This document shows positions 4,895-35,246 of a stretch of DNA of 46,791 nucleotides, in pieces; the stretch's first letter is position 1, and each line of letters starts with the position of its first letter. Position numbers and translations under genes: made by a program. Source of the DNA: Stramenopiles sp. TOSAG23-2 (taxonomy: Eukaryota); contig LT649278.1 in NCBI GenBank assembly GCA_900128395.1, positions 1-46,791 of the forward strand, in the 5' to 3' direction. Under the pieces are notes generated by a model. The model was given only the letters and a program-made list of their open reading frames with translations. It was not told the origin of the DNA and searched no databases.

Positions 4895-5331
4895 CTTTCA
4901 AAAATTTGTTCCGGCTTAACATCAACTTTATTTGTTGTTAATGGAGATATACCAGTCATTCTGGATTTTATTAAATCCTTTGTTGGTGTTAGGAGATTAT
5001 TTTTCTTTACACCAACTGTTATTGGTGATACTGGTAATGGTACCTTACCAGTAATAGTTGGTGCTGGTAATGGCGGTGCTGATAACGTTGATGGTGCAGG
5101 TGGTGGTGATGGTGAAGATTCTTTAACTTGTGTTCCTTCCATCTTCACCTCATTTTTTCCGTCGTTATTATTATTATTTTTCTTTTTCTTCTTCTTCTTC
5201 TTACGTTTCTTTTTTGCATTATTTGCATTATTATTATTATTAATATTATTATTACTGCTATTATTATTACCATCCATCATTGTTGGTGATGGTGGCGATG
5301 ATGATAATACATTGAATGTATTAGTCGACAT
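1609..5331 (-). CDS. SRPK: SR-protein kinase (SRPK family, CMGC) with a long spacer insertion
   Basis: SRPK signature motifs: YKIGGYHPV, LGWGHFSTVWL, ALKIQKSAEHYTEAAWDEIELL, IIHTDLKPENVLL, then after the insert KIVDLGNACW, DIQTRQYRCPEV, LATGDLLFDP, RDEDHLAQMCELLG. Confidence 0.95.
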
Positions 5332-6279
5332 AATTGTTATCTTTGTTGTTATATTTTTGTATGCAAGTTGTATATATATGTATGTATATATATATATATC
5401 ACTATGATTAGTCGTCTTTTGTTTATTGTTTCTATTTTTTGAAAAGCATTGAATTGAATAGTGATTTATTTGATTTTTTTGTCTGTAGTTGTATGTTAAT
5501 AGTGTTGTTGCAATAATGTAATAAAGCTACCAAATATTAATATTAATACATGCTGTGTGGTTGTGCCAGCTAAGGCCAGCTGGCGGTGGAATATTATTGT
5601 TGATTATGATATTTTTATGGATGTAGAAGCAAATACTAGGATGGAAATAGCATTGAAACCCTATAAAGAACAACAAGGCTTACCACCTGGTGGTATGTAA
5701 TATGTCATGTTTTTGTATACAGCCTTGTATGTCAAATAACAACATACATGTAACCCAAGGCTCTTAATATAAACATATCTTTATGCCATAAGGCAGGATC
5801 AAAACAATATGTTATGATGAAAAAAAAACATAGACGTGATGTTACAAATTTTACTTACAGTTTTTTCAGGATTGCTGCCTTTCTTCGGAAGATCGCTGGG
5901 CTTGCGTTTAACGCTTTTTCCATTTGTCTGTTTAATGTTTCGTTTGGTTAGCTGTGGCAATTTAGCAAGAAAAGAACATGAAAAATTAAGTGAATTTAAA
6001 TGTATACAAATCAGGTACCAACTCCTATAAGACCTGAGTGGTATAGCTTAAATAATGCAAATCGGGTGATTTGCACACTCTGCTCAAAACATGAACATAT
6101 GTTTCGTGGTCAACAATTGAATTGTATGGCGCGAAAGGGAAAAGGTGGGCAATTATCTCATGTTCTACAGGATACTTGCAAAAGTTTCGAAAACGTTGTG
6201 CTGGTGGGGGAGGGAAAAGCACAAGATTACATGGTTAATAGTAGGTACATAGCATTACAGTAAATTATAAATTATATAT

Positions 6280-9200
6280 CACACCAGTTACTAGCCCCAA
6301 TTGTTTTAAGGAAACAGCCAAAAAACAGGTTTATTTTTTGAATAAGTTATTTGATAGGTATTTCTTGCATATTTTACAATACCATATTTTCATACTAAAT
6401 CAATAATGGATGGATCGATAATAAAAACAATGTTATCAATACCTGGTAATGTAGAAAATACTTTATTAATCATATTTTCTATTTACAGTATGTTCTGTTT
6501 GTATAATTCATAAAAAATATTGTCTTATGATTCGTTATGAAATGATCTAATATGTCTGGAATACCACCAATGATGGTAGTTGTCGTCGTCTATATCCACG
6601 CAATTCGAAATAAGCAATTCGAAATATAAAAAAATAGGAGGTTCTTCTTCCGCCTCCTGCCTCCTGCCTCCTCTCGTCCGCATTTAACTCTCTAGACTAC
6701 CAACAGGTGGTATACCAAACTGTTGAAAGCAAGCCTATGTCCATGCTGTGGCAATTTTGCTGCTGAAACAAACAATAATTTTGCACCTACGTCCCACGTC
6801 ATGTGGTGGTTGTTCGCTCATTATTATTATTTTTATATTAGTATATAATAATATATAATTATATTGTTGTTGTTGTTGTTGGTTGTTGGCCATATATATG
6901 GTTGGATTTTGTTGTGTAATTTTTGTTATCAAGATATTGGCACCTACTACATCCTTTAAACATTTTTGTTTGTGAAAGAGAACGAGGATAATCCACGCAA
7001 TAATACCATATTTCAAAACAAAGACATAAAAAATAATGCATCGTACAAAATTATGTATCCTATTCATGCTGCTTGCGACGGCAAGTAACACAGAAGCAAC
7101 GAAGTGGAAGTGGGTTGTTGCCAAAGATTTGTGCGCGGGTATTATTGGCGACTGCCAAAACGCAAATGAATGTACAACCACTGCTGTTGGTCCGTGTGAA
7201 GGAGGTGAAACCTCGCCAAAAGCATATTTAAAATCGCGTTTTGTTGGAATGGCATTTGTTAATTTGGAAAAATATTTAGCATGTGCTGATCCGAATTCTT
7301 GTAACGATATGAAAATAATACAACCCTCTGGACTTGGTTATCGAGATTATTCTGGAGCAAAAACGACACCAAATGGGGGGAAGTATGCATATATGATGTC
7401 TGGCAACACGTTTGGTACTAACAGTGCTGATGTATATGCAGGAGTTGCATCGTATATTAACACAGGAGACAAAAATATTGAAACTTCCACAAACGTAGTT
7501 TATGCTGCTGGCACCACAACTGCCGCAAGAGTTTCGCGAGGTGATAGCACGATTGGTGCGCCAAATGGCCCTTTCGAGGTGTGTATTGTAGAACCATCGT
7601 CGACATCGGGCGTTTGCAAAAAGAATGCTATGTTTGAACCTGGAGCATTAAAGTTTTCCGTATTTGGCTATACTATAGTTGCTCCAAATATAGTCGCAGA
7701 TTCAGGATTGGATTATTTTGGTGTTCGCATGGAGTTACAAGCTGTGGGCTTCGACGTAAATGAAGTTCTAGTCGGAACACACGACACTCATTTCCATAAA
7801 TTCAGTGAATTCGATATTAATTCGCAGGTGAAATCGTTGTCATTAATCCATGCTTCGGGTGGGATAAATATCGAATTCCCCGAAATGTACAATGCTGGTA
7901 GTGTTAACTCGGGTGACTCGGGTGAAATCTTTCCCGTGGCTTCAACAAAGCATGTAAAAATCCGCATTCATGGAGTTGATGGGGAAAAGCAAAGCATTTA
8001 TATCGACTATCTGTTTCACCAAAATCCTGATTTCACAATTGATAATAAATACTTTATGTACGATCCAACAATAACTGAGGTAAAGAGCAAGGACTATACA
8101 TCAAAAGCGCCGGCCGCTGCAATCAGCTTATACCTGATGATTGGCTCGGTTGCTGTTATTTTATGGAATTCTGTATGATTTCGAAATGATGACAAGATGG
8201 TCAGTAAGGTAGGGAAGGATAGTTTGGTGGCTACTCACTCACACCTTTACAAATGGCAGCATTTAAAGAACAGTTGGGGATCATCCAGTTCCTCAAAAAT
8301 GTATGCTGCGGAAGCATTTGAGCATATTCAACAAGTGTATTCCATAACAGCACTCTACCTTTGTTTGATGCCGGTCGAAATATTAAAAAAATCACTCGTA
8401 GAAATATCAGAGTATATATATTTGTGTAAAAAATACGTATTATTGATGATAATCATACGCTTCCCGTAAAATATTTAATATTAAAGTTTACACTCCCTGT
8501 CTCTCCCTTGTAATTTTTTTAAAAAAATGTATACGAATAAAATGTTCTCTTACTCATATATTACATAAAAAAAAATATATATATGTGTGTGTATCACACA
8601 TAAAAAACAAATTTTTGTAAAAATATATCTTTTTTTTTAATTTTACTCCAGAATATGATTACGTACATGAAGTACCAATCCCTGTTAAGGACAACATTAC
8701 CCCGGTATAAATATACACCCCGGTGTATATTTTATTATTAGAAAACAAATAAAGCTGCGGAGGAGAAATAATATCAACATACACACTCTCTACTTGACTC
8801 AAAGTTAAGTAAACCCTCATGTTCATGTTGGCACTATTTTGGTGTTGTTGTGTTTCTCTAAGACCTCATTGGAAGCATCTCGATCGTATCTTTGTATACA
8901 ACATTTCCCACATGGTTGCCGCTGACCCTGTTTATTATATATATATGGCGTGTTCAGCCTCCACTTTTCATAAAAATTATCTCGGCATGGAACGCTACAA
9001 AAATGTATTTGTGCTTTTCCTTGGTAGGATAAACATTGGAAGGAATTCTTCTCAGCTACTGGTGATACTATTTCTCTATGTATTTGCCCTGTTGCTGGTT
9101 GTGGTGATTGAAATATGGAACTATTTGTGCGTTTTTTTTCCCTTGTCGATCTATATTATTTTTCGTGCAACAATAGCCAACTATAGTATATTTCCAAGCA

Positions 9201-9622
9201 ATTATGGTCAATTTATCCACGTATCACTTTATAAAAACTTAACTAGCCGAAAAGTTTATACAAATGATATCAGTTTCGTTTAGAGTATTAGGCTGGGGTA
9301 CTAAAAAGCCACAAGACTTGTTTCTATGTGTTGCGGTTCCAGAGAAATTGACTTTTTTTAAAATCGATGTTTTGTGTTTAAGTGCTAGAGTCCAATTAGT
9401 ATATATATACGCTTGAAAAAGACATGTGTACTGTATTCGATTAGTCTGGAGGGGCAAACTAGAATAAATGATGCCACCTCGGTTTCTGTGTGAGGTGATA
9501 TCAATATTTAGTATGAAAATATGGTATTGTAAAGTATGCAAGAAATACCTATCAAATAACAAATATTTTAGACACTCCTTAAATCAAGGCCAAATATCGT
9601 TGGGACTATAGTAACTGGTGTG
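6280..9622. mobile_element. Putative non-autonomous TIR DNA transposon (CAC...GTG termini, 3-bp TAT flanks) carrying a cargo gene
   Basis: 6280-6293 CACACCAGTTACTA is the exact reverse complement of 9609-9622. Inner block 6346-6400 matches the reverse complement of 9506-9560 at 54/55 nt. TAT lies immediately outside both ends (6277-6279, 9623-9625). No transposase ORF recognised inside. Confidence 0.65.
7036..8178 (+). CDS. Hypothetical secreted / membrane- or GPI-anchored protein
   Basis: Intact 380-aa ORF with an N-terminal signal-peptide-like segment (MHRTKLCILFMLLATASNTEA), a Cys-rich N-terminal part, a beta-strand-like body and a hydrophobic C-terminus (AAAISLYLMIGSVAVILWNSV). Family not firmly recognised. 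Confidence 0.7.
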   Translation: MHRTKLCILFMLLATASNTEATKWKWVVAKDLCAGIIGDCQNANECTTTAVGPCEGGETSPKAYLKSRFVGMAFVNLEKYLACADPNSCNDMKIIQPSGLGYRDYSGAKTTPNGGKYAYMMSGNTFGTNSADVYAGVASYINTGDKNIETSTNVVYAAGTTTAARVSRGDSTIGAPNGPFEVCIVEPSSTSGVCKKNAMFEPGALKFSVFGYTIVAPNIVADSGLDYFGVRMELQAVGFDVNEVLVGTHDTHFHKFSEFDINSQVKSLSLIHASGGINIEFPEMYNAGSVNSGDSGEIFPVASTKHVKIRIHGVDGEKQSIYIDYLFHQNPDFTIDNKYFMYDPTITEVKSKDYTSKAPAAAISLYLMIGSVAVILWNSV

Positions 9623-9639
9623 TATTTTGATTGTGATAG

Positions 9640-9717
9640 GCTTTCTTCCAGCTTTCCAGGCTTTCTTCCAGCTTTCCAGCTTTCCAGCTTTCTGGCTTTC
9701 CAGCTTTCCAGGCTTTC
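9640..9717. repeat. Short imperfect tandem repeat of GCTTTCCA(G)/GCTTTCTTCCA units
   Basis: Sequence ctttcttccagctttccaggctttcttccagctttccagctttccagctttctggctttccagctttccaggctttc read directly. Confidence 0.9.
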
Positions 9718-9875
9718 TCATCATCCCACCAGCACAACCAACAAAAAAAACATAATAATAATAATAATAATAAATACAGATTAATATATACAAATATATA
9801 ATTACATATTGTACAAAACAACATAACAAAACAGAACATATCACAAACAAACAAACAAAAAAAACTACAACAGCA

Positions 9876-10418
9876 ATGGCATCATTTGGATCGTCCTCCT
9901 CAACTGGAAGTACATCCATTGAAGAAGCAATAGCAAATTTAAAAAATAGACAAAATACATTAGCTGAAATTGAACCAAATAATAATAATAATAATGAAGC
10001 TGATGAAAAAGACCCCAATGTTATACAGTGGAAGGATATGACAAAGGAACAACAAGAAATAACTTTAAAGCGACGATTTCAAAATTGCATGGTATATATT
10101 AAAAATCTTCCTTATAAAATAAAAGCAGAAGATTTAAAAATGTTATTTTCTAGATTTGGAGAGATTCTTAATATTGCGTTAGGAAATGAAGATGCAACAT
10201 TAGGAACAGCATTTATTGTATATAAAAAACAAAAACAAGCAAAAGCAGCAATCAATGCTTTACGTGGTTTTAAACTACGTGAACGATATTTAATTGTCCA
10301 ACCATATAATCCTTTAACAATGAAAGAAAAAGTAGAAAAACAAATTGAAAGACGTCGTGAACAAGTTAGTAATAGTAAAAAATCTAACGGAAATGCAAAA
10401 AAACAGCGTGTATCGTAA
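9876..10418 (+). CDS. SF3B6: SF3B6/p14 (SF3b14)-like RRM protein, U2 snRNP branch-site component
   Basis: The RRM VYIKNLPYKIKAEDLKMLFSRFGEILNIALGNEDATLGTAFIVY...ALRGFKLRERYLIVQPY follows the p14 pattern (Y-x-x-NLPYKI ... GN-x-x-x-T-x-GTA-x-x-VY ... RYL-x-V-x-x-Y). It is divergent and has an extra N-terminal extension. Confidence 0.75.
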   Translation: MASFGSSSSTGSTSIEEAIANLKNRQNTLAEIEPNNNNNNEADEKDPNVIQWKDMTKEQQEITLKRRFQNCMVYIKNLPYKIKAEDLKMLFSRFGEILNIALGNEDATLGTAFIVYKKQKQAKAAINALRGFKLRERYLIVQPYNPLTMKEKVEKQIERRREQVSNSKKSNGNAKKQRVS

Positions 10419-25116: not shown

Positions 25117-28100
25117 ATGACATCCATTGTGGAACCAAATCGTAAAAAACAAAAAACAATACACCCTGCATTAAAACATGCAGCAATATTGGCAAATGGT
25201 CCAGCTTATAAAGGTGTACCACCACCAAGTGGTGATATTGCTAAATTAAATGCAAACGAAATGAGTTATGGACCTCATCCAGAAATTATCAAAGCATCAC
25301 AAGATGCAATTAAATCATTTCATGTTTACCCCGATCCTGGACAAAATGATTTAAGACAAGCTATTGCAAAGACACATCCTGGATTTTCCAAAGAGGAAGT
25401 CGTTGCTGGCTCTGGTAGTGATGATATGTTAGATGTAATATTGCGTGTAATTAAACCAAAACGTGCTATTCATTTAACACCAACGTTTGGAATGTACAAC
25501 GCGCTATGTGGATTGCACGACATTCCTATGGTTAATATCCCACGCGATGATAAAAATAATTTCAAAATCAATGTACAAAAAATTGTGAAAGAATCTGATG
25601 AAACAACTATTATTTTCCTAGCAAATCCAAACAATCCAACTGGAACTATGACAAGTGAAGAAGAAATTGAAATTTTAGCAAAGACGGGTGCGTTAGTAGT
25701 TGTTGATGAAGCATATATTGAATTCGTGGAATCGTTGAATAGCATTGTTGCACCATCATTAAGTTTAGTGAAAAAATACCAAAATGTTGTCGTCATGCGA
25801 ACGTTATCCAAATGGGCTGGTTTAGCTGGATTACGAATTGGATATGCATTGGCTGATCCAATTATCATCAGTGCTATGATGATTGCAAAGCAACCTTACA
25901 ATGTAAATTGTACTGCGGAAAAAACTGCAATTAAAGCATTGGAAATGAAACAAATGTTAGTGGAAGATAAATCTTCGAATGTATTTAAAGTTGCAGAAGG
26001 TGCAAAAGTATTACAAGCAAAGCTAAATGAGAAAGAATGGTTAACACCAACACCAACAGAATCGAATTTTGTATTATGTCGTGTACATGGTTTCAATGCA
26101 AAACATGTTGCTGCAGTACTTAAATCGCATGATGTTTGGATACGTTTTTTTGGCAGTCAAGGTGGTGCGTTGGAACGTTACATTCGTGTAAGTGTCGGTA
26201 CACCGCGTGATATGGAGCGATTTCATAATGCTTTGGAAATGGTCCCGAATGAAAGTGAGTTAGTAAATGATTTTTCTATGGCAAATAAGAATGTAAAAGC
26301 ATTAATATTTGATATGGATGGTGTCCTTGCTGATGTAAAAGCAAGTTATAGAGCAGCAATTATTGAAACATGTAAATTTTTTAATGTGAATATAAGCAAT
26401 GAAGACATCAATGACATGAAGGCAAAAGGTGATGCAAATAATGATTGGGTTGTTTCACATCGATTGATCATGAATAATAATATTGGTGGTGGTGGTGCTA
26501 CGGTGGAATATGAAGATGTTAAAAACAAATTCCAAGAACTTTATCTTGGTGGATTACGTGATACGGAAACATTAATACCAAGTAAACAAATGTTACTTGA
26601 TTTAGCTGAGAAATATCCATGTGCAATTGTTACTGGCAGACCACGGGATGATTGTGATTATTTTTTAAAATTAGTAGGTTTAGATCAAGTGTTTACAAAA
26701 TGTGTATGTATGGAAGATACTGAAAAACCGAAGCCAGATCCAGCACCTGTACAAATGGCATTAAAATTGCTTGGCATTGAGAATGTTAGCAAGACAAATA
26801 TGCGGGATGATATTTATATGTTTGGGGATACGGTTGATGATATACGAGCATCAACTGCTGCGGGTATTGTTGGTGTCGGTGTCAAGTTGCCAGAAGGATC
26901 GGAAAAAACAGCACGTTTATTAGCTACCTCCGGTGCAGATATCGTATTAAATCATGGGATGGATGCGTTGAATGTTTTATTAGTAGGTAACGATCGTAAC
27001 AGTAAAAAGCAAACGAAAATAGATAAATCTACTGATTCAAGTTTGCCATTACAGCGTTTTACTGCTACTCAAGTTTTAAACAAAGAAAAAAGCTTATGGC
27101 GTGCATCTACCAATCCAAAAATTGAACAAGCTGCTGTGGACATAGTAAGGGATGTGGAAAAGAATGGGGAAACTGCATTGTTAAAATATTCAGTGCGTTT
27201 TGGTGATTTGCCAAGTGAATCTACACCATATTTATTACGAAATGGACCAAATGTAGAAAAAAATGAATTGAAAGCAGCATATGATAGAATATCGGATGAG
27301 ACACGATCATTATTAAATCGTTCTGCACAACGTGTAAGAGAATTTGCACAAGGACAAAAAGATTCATTGAAACAATTTAATATGGATATTCAAGGTGGAA
27401 AAGCTGGCCATACGGTACGGGCAGTAAAAAATGCAGGATGCTATGCACCTGGCGGTAGATATCCATTGCCATCATCTGTTCTAATGACAGTCATACCGGC
27501 ACGTGTGGCTGGTTGTGAAACTGTCGTAGTTGCAAGCCCACGCCCAACAGATGAAACATTGGCAGCAGCATATGTAGCAGGTGCAGATTATGTTTTAACG
27601 ATTGGGGGAGCACAAGCAATTGCTGCTATGGCATATGGTGTAGGAAATATACCAGAATGTGATATTGTCGTCGGTCCAGGAAATGCTTTTGTAACTGCAG
27701 CGAAGAAAACCGTTTTTGGAAAAGTTGGTATTGATATGTTAGCAGGACCATCTGAGGTATTAGTTTTAGCAGATGAATTTGCCAAGCCAGATATTGTAGC
27801 AGCTGATTTAATAGCACAAGCTGAGCATGATACCGCTGCATCAAGCGTATTAATTTCAACTTCATTGGAATTAATTGAAAAAGTTGAGAAAGAATTATTT
27901 AAACAATTGTCTGTTTTGTCAACAGCTGATGTTGCACGTGCATCTTTAGTAAAAAATGGCTTTGGTGTTTGCGTTAAAGATTTAGAAGAAGGTATTAAAG
28001 TTTGTGATATGCTAGCACCGGAACATTTAGAGGTTCATACTGCTAATCCACAAGATGTTGCTAATAAATTAAAAGCATATGGTGCCGTATTTATTGGTGA

Positions 28101-28335
28101 ACAATGTGCGGAAGTTACAGGTGATTATGCTAGTGGTCCAAATCATACATTGCCAACTAGTGGGACTGCTCGTTTCTCCGGCGGGTTAAGCGTTTTAACA
28201 TTTCTTTGTGTACGAACATATATGTCATTTGATGATGCTGTAAAATCTCGACCATTGATAGAAGATGCAGTTGCCTTTGCAAAAATAGAAGGTTTGGCTG
28301 GACATGGCGCAGCTGCAAAGATTCGATTGCCATAA
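25117..28335 (+). CDS. Trifunctional histidine biosynthesis protein: histidinol-phosphate aminotransferase (HisC) + HAD-family phosphatase (putative histidinol-phosphate phosphatase) + histidinol dehydrogenase (HisD)
   Basis: HisC: KLNANE, YPDP, GSGSDD, ANPNNPTG, VVVDEAY, RTLSKWAGLAGLRIGY. HAD: IFDMDGVLADVKASYRAAI, NNDW, IVTGRP, KPDP, MFGDTVDD. HisD: GCYAPGG, PSSVLM, GGAQAIAAMAYG, GPGNAFV, IDMLAGPSE, AQAEHD, APEHLE, GDYASGPNHTLPT. Confidence 0.92.
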   Translation: MTSIVEPNRKKQKTIHPALKHAAILANGPAYKGVPPPSGDIAKLNANEMSYGPHPEIIKASQDAIKSFHVYPDPGQNDLRQAIAKTHPGFSKEEVVAGSGSDDMLDVILRVIKPKRAIHLTPTFGMYNALCGLHDIPMVNIPRDDKNNFKINVQKIVKESDETTIIFLANPNNPTGTMTSEEEIEILAKTGALVVVDEAYIEFVESLNSIVAPSLSLVKKYQNVVVMRTLSKWAGLAGLRIGYALADPIIISAMMIAKQPYNVNCTAEKTAIKALEMKQMLVEDKSSNVFKVAEGAKVLQAKLNEKEWLTPTPTESNFVLCRVHGFNAKHVAAVLKSHDVWIRFFGSQGGALERYIRVSVGTPRDMERFHNALEMVPNESELVNDFSMANKNVKALIFDMDGVLADVKASYRAAIIETCKFFNVNISNEDINDMKAKGDANNDWVVSHRLIMNNNIGGGGATVEYEDVKNKFQELYLGGLRDTETLIPSKQMLLDLAEKYPCAIVTGRPRDDCDYFLKLVGLDQVFTKCVCMEDTEKPKPDPAPVQMALKLLGIENVSKTNMRDDIYMFGDTVDDIRASTAAGIVGVGVKLPEGSEKTARLLATSGADIVLNHGMDALNVLLVGNDRNSKKQTKIDKSTDSSLPLQRFTATQVLNKEKSLWRASTNPKIEQAAVDIVRDVEKNGETALLKYSVRFGDLPSESTPYLLRNGPNVEKNELKAAYDRISDETRSLLNRSAQRVREFAQGQKDSLKQFNMDIQGGKAGHTVRAVKNAGCYAPGGRYPLPSSVLMTVIPARVAGCETVVVASPRPTDETLAAAYVAGADYVLTIGGAQAIAAMAYGVGNIPECDIVVGPGNAFVTAAKKTVFGKVGIDMLAGPSEVLVLADEFAKPDIVAADLIAQAEHDTAASSVLISTSLELIEKVEKELFKQLSVLSTADVARASLVKNGFGVCVKDLEEGIKVCDMLAPEHLEVHTANPQDVANKLKAYGAVFIGEQCAEVTGDYASGPNHTLPTSGTARFSGGLSVLTFLCVRTYMSFDDAVKSRPLIEDAVAFAKIEGLAGHGAAAKIRLP

Positions 28336-28577
28336 AAATTTTGTAATATTTTCAATTGTCACCTTAAAAGCCTATACGGAAATAGTGTACATATTAAAAT
28401 CAGAGTGAATTCTCTACGTTAAAATTATACGTAAAATATTTATTTTAATTAGTTTAAGGAAGTTTATATTGGGAAACAAATTTACGTAATGCTATTTCTC
28501 TATCTATTAAGCTATAAATTAAAATATTCCTTCTCCCTTTAAAAATTAAAAATATTATAATATATATTTTTAATGTT

Positions 28578-31405
28578 TTATAAATTTTGAAATTCATCAT
28601 GTGTAAGCATTTCAATAGCTTCCTCATCTGCTTCCTTCTCTTCCCCATCTTCAAATTTATCATTAGCAGCTTTTTCATACCATTCTTTTGCTTGTTTTAA
28701 ATCTTTTTTGATACCATAACCATAATGATACATATTGCCAAGTAAACGTTGAACTTCAGATAAATTTTCATAATAACGTTTTTCCCACTTCTTTACTAAT
28801 TGTGAAAATAATTCAAATGCCTTTTTATAATTTTTTCTTACACCTTCACCATTTTTATACATTATACCTAGTAAATGTTGAGCATTGGCGTCTGTACGAT
28901 AATGGCCTTCATGAGACCCTACTGCTTTTTTGAAATATTCAAATGCTTTTTTATCATCTTTTATAACACCTTCACCATTTCTATACATTTTACCAAGCTG
29001 AATTTGACTCCAACGGATGTAAATTTTATCTTTGCCTATTTCAATTGCTTTGGTGTAATATTCAAAGGCTTTAGTATAATTTTGTGGCATTTCATCTCTT
29101 TCATAGTACAATTCAGCTAGCAAATACTCATATTTACCACTCTTGCAGTGATCTGCTGCTTTTTGATACCATTCTTCTACTTTTTCATAATCTTTTGTAA
29201 CATATTGACCATGTAGATACATCTCGCCAATATAACACATACTACTTGAATCTTTACAATGCTGTGCTGATTTTGTGAAAAATTCAAAAGCAACTTTATA
29301 ATTTATGGTACACCCAGCCATTCCATAAAGATAATACCAACCAATTCTAGACAGTAAGCCAGAATTTTGCTCTGTTGCTTTTGTCAGCCATTCCAATGCT
29401 TTTTTTTCATCTTTTGGAAAACTATCACCACAACCTTTTTCATACATCTCACCAATTGCTTGGGAACTCTCAGCATATCCTTGTTCAGATGCTTTTTTAT
29501 ACCATTCCAAAGCTTTATTATAATTCTTTGTGATAAAATCTATCCCACCACAAAAATACAGAGCAATTGCATATTGACCTTGCGCAAATCCTTGTTCCGC
29601 AGATTTTTTATACCATTCGAATGCTTTTTTATCATCTTTTGCAACACTGTCTCCATACATACGAGGACTATATGCTTCACCAAGATAATATTGACCAATT
29701 GCTGATCCTTGTTTTGCTGATTTCATCAACAAATCAAATGCTTTCTTATTGTCTTGTTTTACACCATGACCATCACAATAGCATCTACCAAGCCAACATT
29801 CACCATATGCATCTCCTTGTTCTGCTGATTTACTAAAATAATCAAATGCTTTTTTATCATTATCTTTATATCCGAAACCTTTTAAAGGCTCGATTTGAAT
29901 ATAATGCAAAAAACCAAGTATATTTTGTGATAAACTATCATTTTTATTATTTTCATAATATTTAGTAATAATATTATATCCTTTTTCAGCATCTTTAATA
30001 AAATTACCAAATCCAAAAACATGACATAGACCAATTGCAAGATCAAATCCACTATATGCAGATATTTCAATCATTGTTTGATATTGAAGTGGTATAAATA
30101 TCTGTGAATCGTAGTCATATTTGCGAATTAAATGAAGAAATCCATTCATCATCAATTCACGTGTACCAACAGATAAATCAATACTAACATTATTATTATT
30201 ATTATCAATCTTATTTTTACGACGTTTTTTTCTTCTGGATGTAGATGATGATGAAGAAGATGAGCTGGTAGTACTACTATTGCTGCTGCCATCAGCATTA
30301 TTGTTTATCTCATCCACACCTTTTCGTTTTTTACCTGTTACATTATTGCTATTACTAATGTCTTTACCAACAGCGTCCTTCACATTCTTAATTTTCAATT
30401 CAATAATTTCATTCATTTTTTTCAATATTTCAAGTTTTTGTTTATTTATTAATAATGATTTCTTCACTACTTCAAAATTCAGTTTTGCTTCATCATATGC
30501 TTTTTCTGATTGAATATATTCATTTTTCAATTTTACGCTATTGAAATGCTTACACATGATGAATTTCAAAATTTATATTCAAAATTCAGTTTTGCTTCAT
30601 CATATGCTTTTTCTGATTGAATATATTCATTTTTCAATTTTACGCTATTTTCCTCCTCTGATTTTATCATTAAAGATTGACAATCTTTGATAGCATTATA
30701 TTTATTTAATTCATCAGCTTTTTTATTTAAGAAAAGTGCAATTTCAGATTCAAGGACACTAAACGATGATACTACCTCTGTAGTTAAAAGTGAATTAGAA
30801 TCAATGTACTTTTTCCATTTATTAATTTTTTCACTTGTCACTAAGACTTTTGGACTTGATTGTACAAGGTTTGCAATCTTTGATATGGTTTCAATCACAT
30901 TATTCGTTGTCTCTGATGTTAGCATTTCACCCTCAATCGTCCTCAACGCTTTATTGAAATCAATGCCATTTTTATTTTTTTGTTGCCACGATGATATCAT
31001 ACTTTTTACCATATGATTTGGTGTTAACATATGATTATTTAAAATAGCACCAGTTAAAGGAGATCTAACAGGTTGACCTTCTTTTGTTGCAATCCATTTT
31101 TCAATAGATTCACGCATATGATTTGGTGTTAACATATGATTATTTAAAATAGCACCAGTTAAAGGAGATCTAACAGGTTGACCTTCTTTTGTTGCAATCC
31201 ATTTTTCAATAGATTCACGTTCATATGTTTGCCCATCTGATGCTATAACAGGCTCTTTAAATATTTCACCACTAATTGAGCATATAAAATGTTCTGGTGT
31301 TGGCACTTGCATACCACCAGTATCTTGACTATTTGAAATTGACGTCGTCGCCGTGGTGGAATTCGTCGTCGTCGTTGTGGTTGTTGTTGTTGGCATCATC
31401 ATCAT
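28578..31405 (-). pseudogene. U-box + coiled-coil + SEL1-repeat protein, copy A; interrupted (ORFs 31405-30566 and 30569-28578)
   Basis: U-box (PEHFICSISGEIFKEPVIASDGQTYERESIEKW...SPLTG...LTPN) and many SEL1 repeats (LGxMYxxGxGVxxDxKKAFEYF). The frame is broken by a 107-bp insertion at 30543-30649, and there is an in-frame 105-bp duplication in the U-box. Could be an intact gene that was mis-assembled. Confidence 0.75.
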
Positions 31406-31950
31406 GATGATAATTTCTGTTGATTTTTAATCTTGTATATTATCGATACACACTCGTATGTAAATATATATATAGATGATTGAACACAGAAGCGCACACG
31501 CACACTTATAATCTACTATTACAATTGTATATAAATACTCTTTATACTATTACATACATTTACAAACATTATACAATACATGTATTAATAATAGAAATAC
31601 ATATTTTATCATCAAATATCAAATTAATTATTCCAGGTATTTCTAATTTCAAAATATTTTATACCCTTTCCCCTATTAATTAGAATATACCTGGTACATA
31701 TAAGTATAAGAAATTTGAGATATTGATTGAATATGATTTGATATTTCGTGAATTCGAAAAGATTTGTGCATTTGGTGATTTGGTGTGTGTGTCTGTTTGA
31801 GTGAGAGTGAAAGTAGTGTGTTGTTTTTTAATATTATAAGAAACATGAAACATGATGAGAGGAAACGCATGCGTATCTCTGTCTTAATATATAAATTCCT
31901 TTTTGCTTTAAATATTATATATAATATATATATATATATATATATGTTTT

Positions 31951-34679
31951 TTATAAATTTTGAAATTCATCATGTGTAAGCATTTCAATAGCTTCTTCAT
32001 CTGCTTTCTTCTCTTCCCCGTCTTCAAATTCATCATTAGCAGCTTTTTCATACCATTCTTTTGCCTTTTTTAAATCTTTTTTGATACCATAACCATAATG
32101 ATACATATTGCCAAGTAAACGTTGAACTTCAGATAAATTTTCATACTCGGAACCTTCACCTTCATCTACCGATTTTGTAAATAGTTCAAATGCCTTTTTT
32201 TTAAATCTTTTTTGATACCATAACCATAATGATACATATTGCCAAGTAAACGTTGAACTTCAGATAAATTTTCATACTCGGAACCTTCACCTTCATCTAC
32301 CGATTTTGTAAATAGTTCAAATGCCTTTTTGTTGTTTTTCCGCACTCCCTCACCATTTTTATACATTATACCTAGTAAATGTTTAGCTTCAAAAGATTCA
32401 TCATCTTCGTCATGTTCTAGTGCTTTTGTGAAATATTCAAATGCTTTTTTATCATCTTTTATGATACCTTCACCATTTCTATACATTATACCAAGCTGAA
32501 TTTGACTATAACAGATGTAATCTCCATTTTCAATTGCTTTGGTGTAATATTCAAATGCTTTAGCATAATTTTGTGGCATTTCATCTCCGTAATAGTACAA
32601 ATTTGCTAGCATATACTCATATTCACCACTCTTGCAGTGATCTGCTGCTTTTTGATACCATTCTTCTACTTTTTCATAATCTTTTGTAACATATTGACCA
32701 TGTAGATACATATCGCCAATATAATTCATACTACTTGAATCTTTACAATGCTGTGCTGATTTTGTGAAAAATTCAAAAGCAACTTTGTAATTTTTGGTAC
32801 ACCCATTACTTCCACGAAGATAACTCCAACCAATTTCAAACATTAATTTAGAATTTTGCTCTGTGGCTTTTGTCATCCATTCCAATGCTTTTTTTTCATC
32901 TTTTGGAAAACTATCACCACAACCTTTTCTGTACAACTCACCAATTATTTGGGAACTTCGAGCATATCCTTGTTCAGATGCTTTTTTATACCATTCCAAG
33001 GCTTTATTATAATTCTTTTTGATAAACCCACTTCCATAGCGAAAATACTGAGCAACTTCATATTGACCTTGCGCAAATCCCAGTTCTGCAGATTTTTTTA
33101 ACCATTCAAATGCTTTTTTTTCATCTTTCGCATCACCGTATCCATACCTATATGCATCACCAAGATAATATTGACCGATTGATGATCCTTGTTTTGCTGA
33201 TTTCATAAACAAACCAAATGCTTTCTTTTTGTCTTGTTTTACACCACATCCATAACAATAGCATATACCAAGCAAACATTCACCATATGCATCTCCTTGT
33301 TCCGCTGATTTACTAAAAAAATTAAATGCCGTTTTTTTATTATTTACGGTTTCGAAACCTTTTAAAGGCTCAATTTGAATATAATGCAAAAAACCAAGTA
33401 TATTTTGTGATAAACTATCATTTTTATTATTTTCATAATATTTAGTAATAATATTATATCCTTTTTCAGCATCTTTAATAAAATTACCAAATCCAAAAAT
33501 ATGACATACGCCAATTGCAAGATCAAATCCACTATATGCAGATATTTCAATCATAGTTTGATATTTAAGTGGTATAACAATCAGTGAATCGTAGTCATAG
33601 TCGGCGATTAAATGAAGAAATCCATTCATCATCAATTCACGTGCGCCAACAGATAAATCAACACTACTAACATTATTATTATTATTATCAGTCTTTTGCT
33701 TACGACGTTTTTTTCTTCTGGATGTAGATGATGATGAAGAAGACGAGCTAGTAGTACTACTATTGCTGCCATCAATATTGTTACCGTTTATCTCATCAAT
33801 ATTTTTACGTTTTTTTCCTGTTACATTATCGTTATTAATAATGTCTTTACCAACAGCGTCCACCACATTCTTAATTTTCAATTCAATATTTTCATTCATT
33901 TTTTTCAATATTTCAAGTTTTTTTTTATTTATTAATAATGATTTTTTCACATTTTCAAAATTCAGTTTTGCTTCATCATATGCTTTTTCTGATTGAATAT
34001 ATTCATTTTTCAATTTTACGCTATTCTCTTCCTCTGATTTTATCATTAAAGATTGACAATCTTTGATAGCATTATATTTATTCAATTCATCAGTTTTGTT
34101 GTTTAAGAAAAGTGCAATTTCAGATTCAAGAACACTAAACGATGATACTACCTCTGTAGTTAAAAGTGAATTAGAATCAATGTACTTTTTCCATTTATTA
34201 ATTTTTTCACTTGTCACTAAGACTTTTGGACTTGATTGTACAAGGTTTGCAATCTTTGATATTGTTTCAATCACATTATTCGTTGGCTCTGATGTTAGCA
34301 TTTCACCCTCAATCGTCCTCAACGCTTTATTGAAATCAATGCCATTTTTATTTTTTTGTTGCCACGATGATATCATACTTTTTACCATATGATTTGGTGT
34401 TAACATATGATTATTTAAAATAGCACCAGTTAAAGGAGATGTAACAGGTTGACCTTCTTTTGTTGCAATCCATTTTTCAATTGATTCACGTTCATATGTT
34501 TGCCCATCAGCTGCCATGACAGGATCTTTGAATATTTCACCACTAATTGAACATATAAAATGTTCTGGTGTTGGTATTTGCATACCACCAGTATCTTGAC
34601 TATTTGAAATTGACGTCGTCGTGGTGGTGGAATTCGTCGTCGTCGTCGTTGTTGTTGTTGTTGTTGGCATCATCATCAT
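31951..34679 (-). CDS. U-box + coiled-coil + SEL1-repeat protein, copy B; frameshifted near the 3' end by a 131-bp duplication
   Basis: 837-aa ORF 34679-32166 is clearly paralogous to copy A. Removing one copy of the duplication at about 32062-32330 restores ...KKDLKKAKEWYEKAANDEFEDGEEKKADEEAIEMLTHDEFQNL* ending at 31951, matching the C-terminus of copy A. Confidence 0.8.
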
Positions 34680-35246
34680 GATGATAATTTCTGTTTATTT
34701 TTTATTGTATGTTATCAATACACACACACGTATATAAATATATGTAGATTATTACACACAGAAGTACAAGCACACACACAGACTTATAATATACTACTAC
34801 AATTGTATATAAAGACTCTTTATACTATTATACATTTACAAACATATACAAAATATATGTATTAATAATGTAAATATAAATACAGTTTTTATCAAAAAAT
34901 ATTATCATCAATCAAATTCTTCTAAATTTCAAAATATGATATATCTTTCCCCTATCACTTAGAATACAAACAAGTATAGAAGTTTGAAATTGAGGTAAAG
35001 ATTGATTATATATGTATTCGTGATTCGTGAAGGGAAAAAATTTGTTGGCATCATCTGGTGTCGCGACTTGTGTGTGTGCTTTAGTGAAAGTAGTGCTAGA
35101 GTTAAATAAAAAGAGAAAAATATGTAGTACACAAAAAACATTTTTTTAATATATCCACAATGTATGATACTAAGTATGATACGTTCGTACGTACGAGAGA
35201 TCGTAAAATTATAAAAAGAGGATATTTTAGAGAATGATGACAATTT

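Follow-up and report, generated by a model that had tools for sequence, protein, structure and literature searches.

The capture of host DNA between the terminal inverted repeats (TIRs) of DNA transposons, known as Pack-type capture, is known for the most part from plants and animals, and a brief analogue has been reported from the brown alga Ectocarpus (PMC6379663, PMC8277862, PMC8903248, PMC12477816). Among the systems described so far are the Pack-CACTA or Pack-TYPE elements of plants (Catoni et al., PMC6379663; Gisby and Catoni, PMC8903248), the single-copy Pack-TIRs of animals (Tan et al. 2021, PMC8277862), and the elements of Ectocarpus, a host where EnSpm is also present, which their authors likened to Pack-MULEs (PMC12477816). 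Regarding the ends of such elements, CAC...GTG termini with a 3-bp duplication have been called consistent with EnSpm (PMC12730594), one of the groups that, together with Mirage, Chapaev, Transib and Plavaka, form the CMC/CMCT clade (PMC12730594, PMC4079192). In this work we describe a 3.3-kb element with ends of this kind in a stretch of 46,791 nucleotides from Stramenopiles sp. TOSAG23-2 (contig LT649278.1; hereafter "the window", meaning the stretch at its full length). The element, which contains an intact gene for a 380-aa protein among pieces of other host loci, is in our judgement very probably a Pack-type transposon, a cut-and-paste DNA element without autonomy that holds captured host DNA.

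The Ends of the Element and a Second Family Member

The element is bounded by a perfect 14-bp TIR, CACACCAGTTACTA at the left end and its exact reverse complement at the right end, followed inwards by a 55-nt inverted block with a complementarity of 98% and, between both repeats, by a degenerate linker that is gapped but still alignable. Directly outside both ends there is a TAT trimer. All these features had been reported in an initial annotation of this DNA, and we found each of them at the positions given there (Table 1). Base composition predicts the 14-mer 0.00014 times per window and 0.2 times per assembly (G000; 32.8 Mb in 9146 contigs, fragmented and incomplete), and five exact copies were found. 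The trimer TAT, on the other hand, makes up 4.6% of the local trimers, so the TAT flanks say little by themselves. The arms are of unequal length, 121 bp on the left versus about 400-450 bp on the right, as the left arm halts at 6400, where it is cut off by captured DNA. The right arm is collinear for about 400 bp with contig C5672 of the assembly (score of 173 versus a maximum of 55 in 60 shuffles), and also with C2239 (score of 55 versus 38 for shuffles).

When one mismatch is allowed, the 14-mer shows 18 matches in the assembly outside the window (12 for a control pattern), four of which continue into family sequence: two right-type ends (C5672 and C1270) and two left-type ends (C2262 and C2346). 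The ends of the window element belong to a small, low-copy transposon family whose left and right termini differ (CACACCAG) and whose flanking duplications are A/T-rich and 3 bp long. All its ends read CACAC, unlike the CACT[A/G] terminal pentamer of plant CACTA/EnSpm elements, which are also characterised by short repeats in subterminal arrays. Two of these ends can be joined through an exact overlap of 47 nt (C5672:980-1026 = C2262:1-47) into one paired element of 849 bp with long inverted arms, which carries AAT on both outer sides and does not contain the cargo gene of the window. A 3-bp duplication occurs then at two out of two paired elements, and the chance of both trimer pairs (TAT and AAT) matching is about 0.2% (4.6% x 3.6%). 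A paired copy of the termini with a different 3-bp duplication and other content, which the initial annotation had proposed to look for, is therefore at hand in the 849-bp member. Decayed or more distant pieces of the family were detected on C1821, C2239, C716 and C6730, and none of the 88 matches to the terminal 15-mer in viral contigs continues as family sequence (best score of 23, where true ends reach 36-62 on a similar scale).

This genome contains solo ends as well as decayed pieces of arms (C1270, C2346, C1821 and C2239), the chance frequency of TAT is the one given above, and a route from neighbouring insertions to a hybrid element has been published for Pack-CACTA (PMC6379663). On these grounds, the locus could correspond to two separate members or solo ends in opposite orientation, which would bracket a rearranged stretch between TAT trimers present by chance. 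We see this as a very unlikely explanation, because a left-type end is paired here with a right-type end, just as in the second member, and because the inner blocks, so closely complementary to each other and yet unlike those of other members, mark one single element. Moreover, the interior derives from three unlinked loci rather than from DNA of the neighbourhood, and the arm passes directly into its first piece.

Some other observations relate to the ends. On C2346 (L055:538-6585), the unpaired left-type end is followed by an open reading frame (ORF) for a 428-aa multi-pass membrane protein and by a divergent pair of paralogous ORFs (508 and 540 aa, 64% identical in DNA), the longer of which has no Pfam match, a locus that is possibly a larger packed element truncated by the end of the contig. 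Just beyond the right end of the window element there is a CTTTCCAG-type minisatellite (9637-9715) of very high metagenome depth, which also occurs inside the distant family end on C716 (C716:8315). The 14-mer CCCACCAGCACAAC, perhaps a promoter motif, flanks the element at 6195-6208 and 9725-9738, facing outward to the two divergent host genes.

Junctions in Independent Sequencing Runs

Population data come from four of the 21 listed runs (X3, X4, X5 and X7), all examined as contigs, with X5 read to 55%, so that no weight is given to the low cover of the gene in that run. Runs X3 and X4 belong to one study, which is not marked as the source of this DNA, and those runs with this DNA that name a habitat are marine or aquatic. 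Contigs of X3 and X4, with their own variants, bridge the left junction, the joins between arm, protease piece and gene, and the right junction, the join between gene and arm being bridged in X3, whereas in X7 it is the left junction that is bridged; the insertion is present in the runs of two other studies. As independent runs reproduce the junctions, the element is not an assembly artefact. A chimera produced during single-cell amplification or assembly, which the many contigs of the fragmented assembly and the patchwork interior could bring to mind, has in our opinion practically no chance of being the explanation: contigs of X3 and X4 cross both outer and inner junctions with variants of their own, and a piece of a protease gene found inside the element is 12% diverged from its parent.

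The arm contigs are deeper than the flanks (30 versus 9-14 in X3, and 48-55 versus 7-17 in X5), a depth that is no copy number and that hints at additional copies. The gene shows the depth of the flanks in X3 and X4. The RNA runs X15-X20 contain just 0.11-0.21 of the sampled words.

A Mosaic Interior and Its Donors

The interior of the element is composed of pieces of three unlinked host loci, one of them with a whole gene, together with a decayed remnant of a probable ORF of the family itself (Table 1). The intact 380-aa gene and the lack of a transposase reported in the initial annotation both hold, and its picture of a single gene has to be widened with at least two further captured pieces and the family remnant.

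The first piece joins directly onto the last base of the left arm, and comes from a papain-family protease gene whose parent on C1969 is an intact ORF of 421 aa with I29 and Peptidase_C1 domains; its frame is broken in the element by small indels. Decaying DNA of this genome seems to acquire short insertions with CCAGG or TACTG: those in the protease piece are of 5 and 7 bases, and the same words are present in the decayed ends on C2346 and C6730.

The second piece is a 1.8-kb cassette with the whole gene, which differs from its copy on contig L067 at 13 of 1143 nt (98.9% identity; 4 silent and 9 replacing differences). Contig L067 covers 3.8 kb upstream and 2.1 kb downstream of the gene, shows no 14-mer within two mismatches, and has other neighbours than the window: one of them is a PEX11 gene and another one an ORF without a Pfam match, which we take by eye, from a motif, to resemble a DIRS-type tyrosine recombinase. 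Upstream of this repeat-free copy (L067:625-2690) there is a decayed element with a tyrosine-recombinase-like ORF (by eye) and a direct repeat of ~150 bp. The different neighbourhood of the L067 copy argues for capture rather than for chance flanking. The possibility raised at first, that relatives would keep the gene in synteny and free of TIRs, is thus borne out only in the absence of repeats, since the surroundings are not syntenic. The GC content at third codon positions (GC3) is 0.45-0.56 for the L067 neighbours, compared with 0.13-0.30 in nine genes of the window and 0.35 in the cargo gene, and at least one gene of the assembly is near 0.44. With such a gene in an incomplete assembly, an origin of the L067 copy in the same species is the simpler reading; the cargo gene may also have been transferred between lineages, or L067 itself may be a secondary site.

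Within the cassette, a relic of a membrane-protein gene family is already present in L067, and consequently it is not a separate capture. The short dispersed repeat of ~44 bp, which sits in an A-run of the cassette, is missing from both L067 and a contig of X5, indicating that it is younger and polymorphic; with a GTAAG donor-like site on its minus strand, it may be an intron-like mobile repeat.

The third piece corresponds to the end of a gene for a multi-pass membrane protein (P0161), and an X5 contig departs from the window at 8913 to follow then the P0161 frame, as read by hand. The captured pieces share only 0-2 bases of identity at their junctions (by eye), and for about 430 bp of the interior no source was matched in the assembly. 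No Rfam match was found across 5300-10000. A plus-strand ORF of 154 aa (8819-9283) was considered as a gene and rejected, as its span overlaps with two remnants on the minus strand for which real homologues exist. Altogether, the second paired member and the parents found for the cargo bear out the initial proposal of a TIR element that is non-autonomous, is flanked by a duplication of 3 bp and contains captured host DNA.

Table 1. Features of the element and its borders in the window (strand "." where none applies).
Feature	Position	Strand	Basis
Target-site duplication of 3 bp (TAT), left copy	6277..6279	.	Trimer present; no empty site seen
Left arm: 14-bp terminal repeat (6280-6293), left-type linker, 55-bp inner block (6346-6400)	6280..6400	+	Repeat alignment; high-depth X3 contig spans 6289-6400 and ends there
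Papain-family protease gene: upstream region and first ~24 codons, frameshifted	6401..6598	-	88% to G000:C1969:9385-9570
Filler	6599..6813	.	No other assembly match
Captured cassette: whole gene with 5' and 3' flanks	6814..8604	+	95% over 1708 columns to contig L067
Intact 380-aa ATG gene of an unnamed family: hydrophobic N-terminus, predicted beta-supersandwich body, hydrophobic C-terminal putative anchor	7036..8178	+	ORF, model, hydropathy
Relic of a membrane-protein gene family, within cassette	8296..8383	+	76% to G000:C1298
Short dispersed repeat, later insertion, approximate limits	8527..8569	.	About 40 assembly matches (lower bound); absent from L067
Filler	8605..8822	.	No other assembly match for 8625-9505
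Captured 3' end of a multi-pass membrane-protein gene (last 29 codons with the stop)	8823..8913	-	97% to C-terminus of P0161
Decayed 5' remnant of the putative family ORF, with cysteine motif, reading inward from the right end	8914..9160	-	8940-9047 matches P0162 aa 14-51
Right arm: family backbone, 55-bp block (9506-9560), 14-bp terminal repeat (9609-9622)	9170..9622 (inner limit 9170-9230)	-	Collinearity with C5672 and C2239
Target-site duplication of 3 bp (TAT), right copy	9623..9625	.	Trimer present

The Captured Gene and Its Protein

The cargo gene, confirmed as intact, encodes a protein with 12 close homologues at 33-98% identity and 308 representatives (at 50% identity) with E values up to 0.001. 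None of 63 viral and 24 prokaryotic candidates was confirmed as a relative, and the family is apparently eukaryotic. No Pfam family was found for the query, nor one common to more than one of 77 members, and no match appeared among PDB sequences or in the Atlas. The structure, predicted with confidence (predicted local distance difference test, pLDDT, of 87.9), is an all-beta supersandwich with a C-terminal helix. Its fold matches are tied at Z scores of 11-12, most with a root mean square deviation of about 3.6-4, and include the supersandwiches of alpha-mannosidase, beta-galactosidase and mutarotase, the periplasmic domain of YidC and the lysosomal GLMP; as these matches are tied, no function is drawn from them. 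By crude hydropathy, 43 of the 62 members of at least 330 aa have a hydrophobic N-terminus, and in 54 of 62 the C-terminus is hydrophobic and followed by a short tail without charges. This profile fits a secreted, C-terminally anchored protein, for which the initial label of "surface protein" is plausible, and which may also face the lysosome or the phagosome. Most likely, the gene is a passenger of the element that would code for a surface or endomembrane protein, either tail-anchored or of the glycosylphosphatidylinositol type, with a carbohydrate-binding-like fold.

Between the window and L067 copies, the ratio of replacing to silent polymorphism (pN/pS) is 0.69, which does not differ from neutral (p 0.52). 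Compared with P0002, the window residue is the derived one at six of the nine replaced sites, and the other three are ambiguous. At four of the nine, the element-borne allele of X3 has the L067 state, and these four replacements are hence private to the window haplotype. Codon 220 (7693-7695) reads V in the window, D in X3 and X7, G in L067 and N in P0001, in a loop about 8 residues shorter than that of most homologues. A relative with 43% identity on L068 adjoins a GH5 gene, without the 14-mer, on a contig that covers only 0.8 kb upstream.

The whole gene with its flanks inside the element, the insertion in runs of two other studies, the higher GC3 of the L067 neighbours, which are unmatched in the assembly, and the left end on C2346 followed by other intact ORFs could all be taken as signs of an active gene-carrying family, which would amplify and spread surface-protein genes, possibly between lineages. 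Nevertheless, such a scenario seems very unlikely to us. Both the gene and the mosaic are single-copy in the assembly, and in X3 and X4 the gene does not exceed the depth of its flanks. Among seven metagenome loci with a relative, none shows the 14-mer within two mismatches, although five of the seven are shorter than 2 kb. The changes with respect to L067 do not differ from neutral, as described above. The suggestion in the initial annotation of a vehicle for surface-protein genes is not supported either, as the assembly contains a single copy of the packed element with its gene, and no gene of this kind is carried by the second complete member.

The Probable Resident Open Reading Frame and the Search for a Transposase

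The decayed remnant next to the right arm has a cysteine motif that matches aa 14-51 of P0162, a protein of 882 aa encoded on a 6.3-kb contig, and the 849-bp member matches aa 526-571 of the same protein at 67%. Both pieces read inward from a right-type end. That two members retain different parts of P0162 suggests that this is the resident gene of the family. Variants in the reads, inspected by hand, show an in-frame start codon in X5 and X7 and the second cysteine of the CxxC pair in all four runs, which indicates that the ORF has decayed less in other copies. Further decayed pieces of P0162 were noted on C874 (843-1118, 63%) and, weakly, on C1841 (6682-6759), with no family ends seen beside them. 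P0162 gave neither a match to a transposase family nor a significant match to PDB sequences, its model is poor (mean pLDDT of 38), and none of two candidate relatives in viral contigs was confirmed. The by-eye idea of a 2-oxoglutarate/iron dioxygenase could not be supported.

Inside the element, neither the ORF lists nor a six-frame reading revealed an intact transposase, and three inner ORFs tested had no Pfam match. The ORFs beside the other ends (C1270, C2346, C1821 and C716) were read as well, and the three of them scanned against Pfam gave no transposase match. A bolder version of events would have a CMC-like family acting as a live gene-shuffling vehicle in an uncultured marine protist, which took up the entire gene of an anchored protein, possibly from a different lineage in view of the GC-richer L067 neighbours, and brought it to a place beside housekeeping genes. 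In some strains the transposon copy would be the sole one, expressed and, to judge by the four residues at codon 220, diversifying, and P0162, with no resemblance to a known transposase, would mark an undescribed transposon lineage. We consider this version unlikely.

Balance of the Evidence and a Possible Mechanism

Several points weigh against a Pack-type transposon. The join of C5672 and C2262 falls within a repeated arm, which makes it likely but not unique, and C5672 terminates in 8 unmatched bases. Two ends remain unpaired, with no partner for C1270 in 20 kb nor for C2346 in the 8.1 kb up to the contig end. An empty site with a single TAT, whose search had been proposed from the start, was seen in none of the four runs, nor did any contig skip from 6279 to 9623, so that no uninterrupted allele backs the duplication. 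Just one of the three cargo parents is present in the same assembly, and the flanks of L067 are unmatched there at both DNA and protein level. Finally, the incomplete assembly yielded neither the family member with a DDE transposase that the initial annotation had proposed to look for nor any related autonomous partner; a search with PF02992 gave one sub-threshold match with 6 stops, and those with PF18759 and PF06918 gave none.

Taking the Pack-type transposon as the preferred explanation, a family member would have inserted between the kinase and SF3B6 genes, duplicating TAT. A break inside the element would then have been repaired by gap filling, with template switches that copied host DNA in, and this DNA would have taken the place of the resident gene and the left arm for the most part, either at the present site or before the last jump. 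Any movement would need a transposase supplied in trans. A single copy and its presence in several samples favour the gap-filling route, as described for animal Pack-TIRs (PMC8277862), and the distant donors favour a capture followed by a jump.

Neighbouring Genes and Other Features of the Window

The right neighbour of the element is SF3B6, whose best PDB match is p14 (E 1.4e-17), and the left neighbour is a protein kinase. The insertion had been placed at first between SRPK and SF3B6; the second name is supported, and for the first one the kinase is presumably an SRPK, a label that comes from its motifs. Elsewhere in the window, a gene with Sel1-like repeats (by eye) is duplicated in tandem at 28576-34685 (about 3.3-3.5 kb, 89-97%), with a 41-bp inverted copy at the boundary, and an ORF of 1072 aa (25117-28335) appears by eye to fuse three histidine-biosynthesis enzymes: an aminotransferase, a phosphatase and a dehydrogenase.

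Comparison with Known Systems

The locus does not reveal a new mechanism, but a known way of gene shuffling, here in a protist. Three cargo pieces, including an entire gene from a family without a name, could be followed back to their donors in a marine protist from the wild. This suggests that TIR elements shuffle genes and carry them to new places in the small genomes of protists as well. A report of Pack-CACTA from a heterotrophic protist was not found in the open-licence literature, with one query dominated by unrelated papers. The locus offers as well a direct test ground for the empty site and for expression.

With regard to its classification, the ends point, with somewhat better than even prospects, to an enzyme of the CMC/CMCT group for this family. 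As in that group, the termini are CA..TG (CAC..GTG) and the duplication of 3 bp falls within the range of 2-5 bp (PMC12730594, PMC4079192), but the DDE transposase of the clade, with its C(2)C and H(3-4)H motifs, was not found in this case. The initial assignment to CACTA/Mirage/Chapaev is therefore not shown, although the ends and the duplication fit, and, for lack of a transposase, we do not file the element in EnSpm/CMCT. Chapaev3 differs in its TWA duplication, compared with TAT and AAT here (PMC4079192), and Pangu elements (PHIS) have AG/GG termini and an ANT duplication, which our CA start and TAT do not fit, although AAT does (PMC4482050).

The element shows several features of the Pack type: family TIRs, a target-site duplication, a host-derived interior whose parents (C1969, L067 and P0161) are not tied to the repeats, and no intact transposase. 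In place of multiple packed copies with different duplications, there is one copy in the assembly, at single-copy depth in X3 and X4. With the plant Pack-CACTA and Pack-TYPE elements it shares the family TIRs, the 3-bp duplication, the lack of a transposase and the merged host fragments (PMC6379663, PMC8903248). It departs from the plant Pack-CACTA by its CACAC ends, its single copy, its marine protist host and a cargo that includes a whole gene with flanks, and also in that an autonomous partner was not found in our incomplete assembly. Closer in copy number are the single-copy Pack-TIRs of animals, which likewise hold host DNA in a decayed TIR element and are compatible with gap filling (PMC8277862). 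These, according to the same source, are mostly hAT or TcMariner elements that mostly copy nearby DNA, whereas our element has three unlinked donors, none of them adjacent, and junction identities of only 0-2 bases. Outside plants and animals, the transposase-less DNA transposons of Ectocarpus are similar in being non-autonomous carriers of non-transposase genes; those are described as giant elements (>10 kb) in multi-copy families, in contrast to the single-copy element of 3.3 kb reported here, for which the donors have been traced (PMC12477816).

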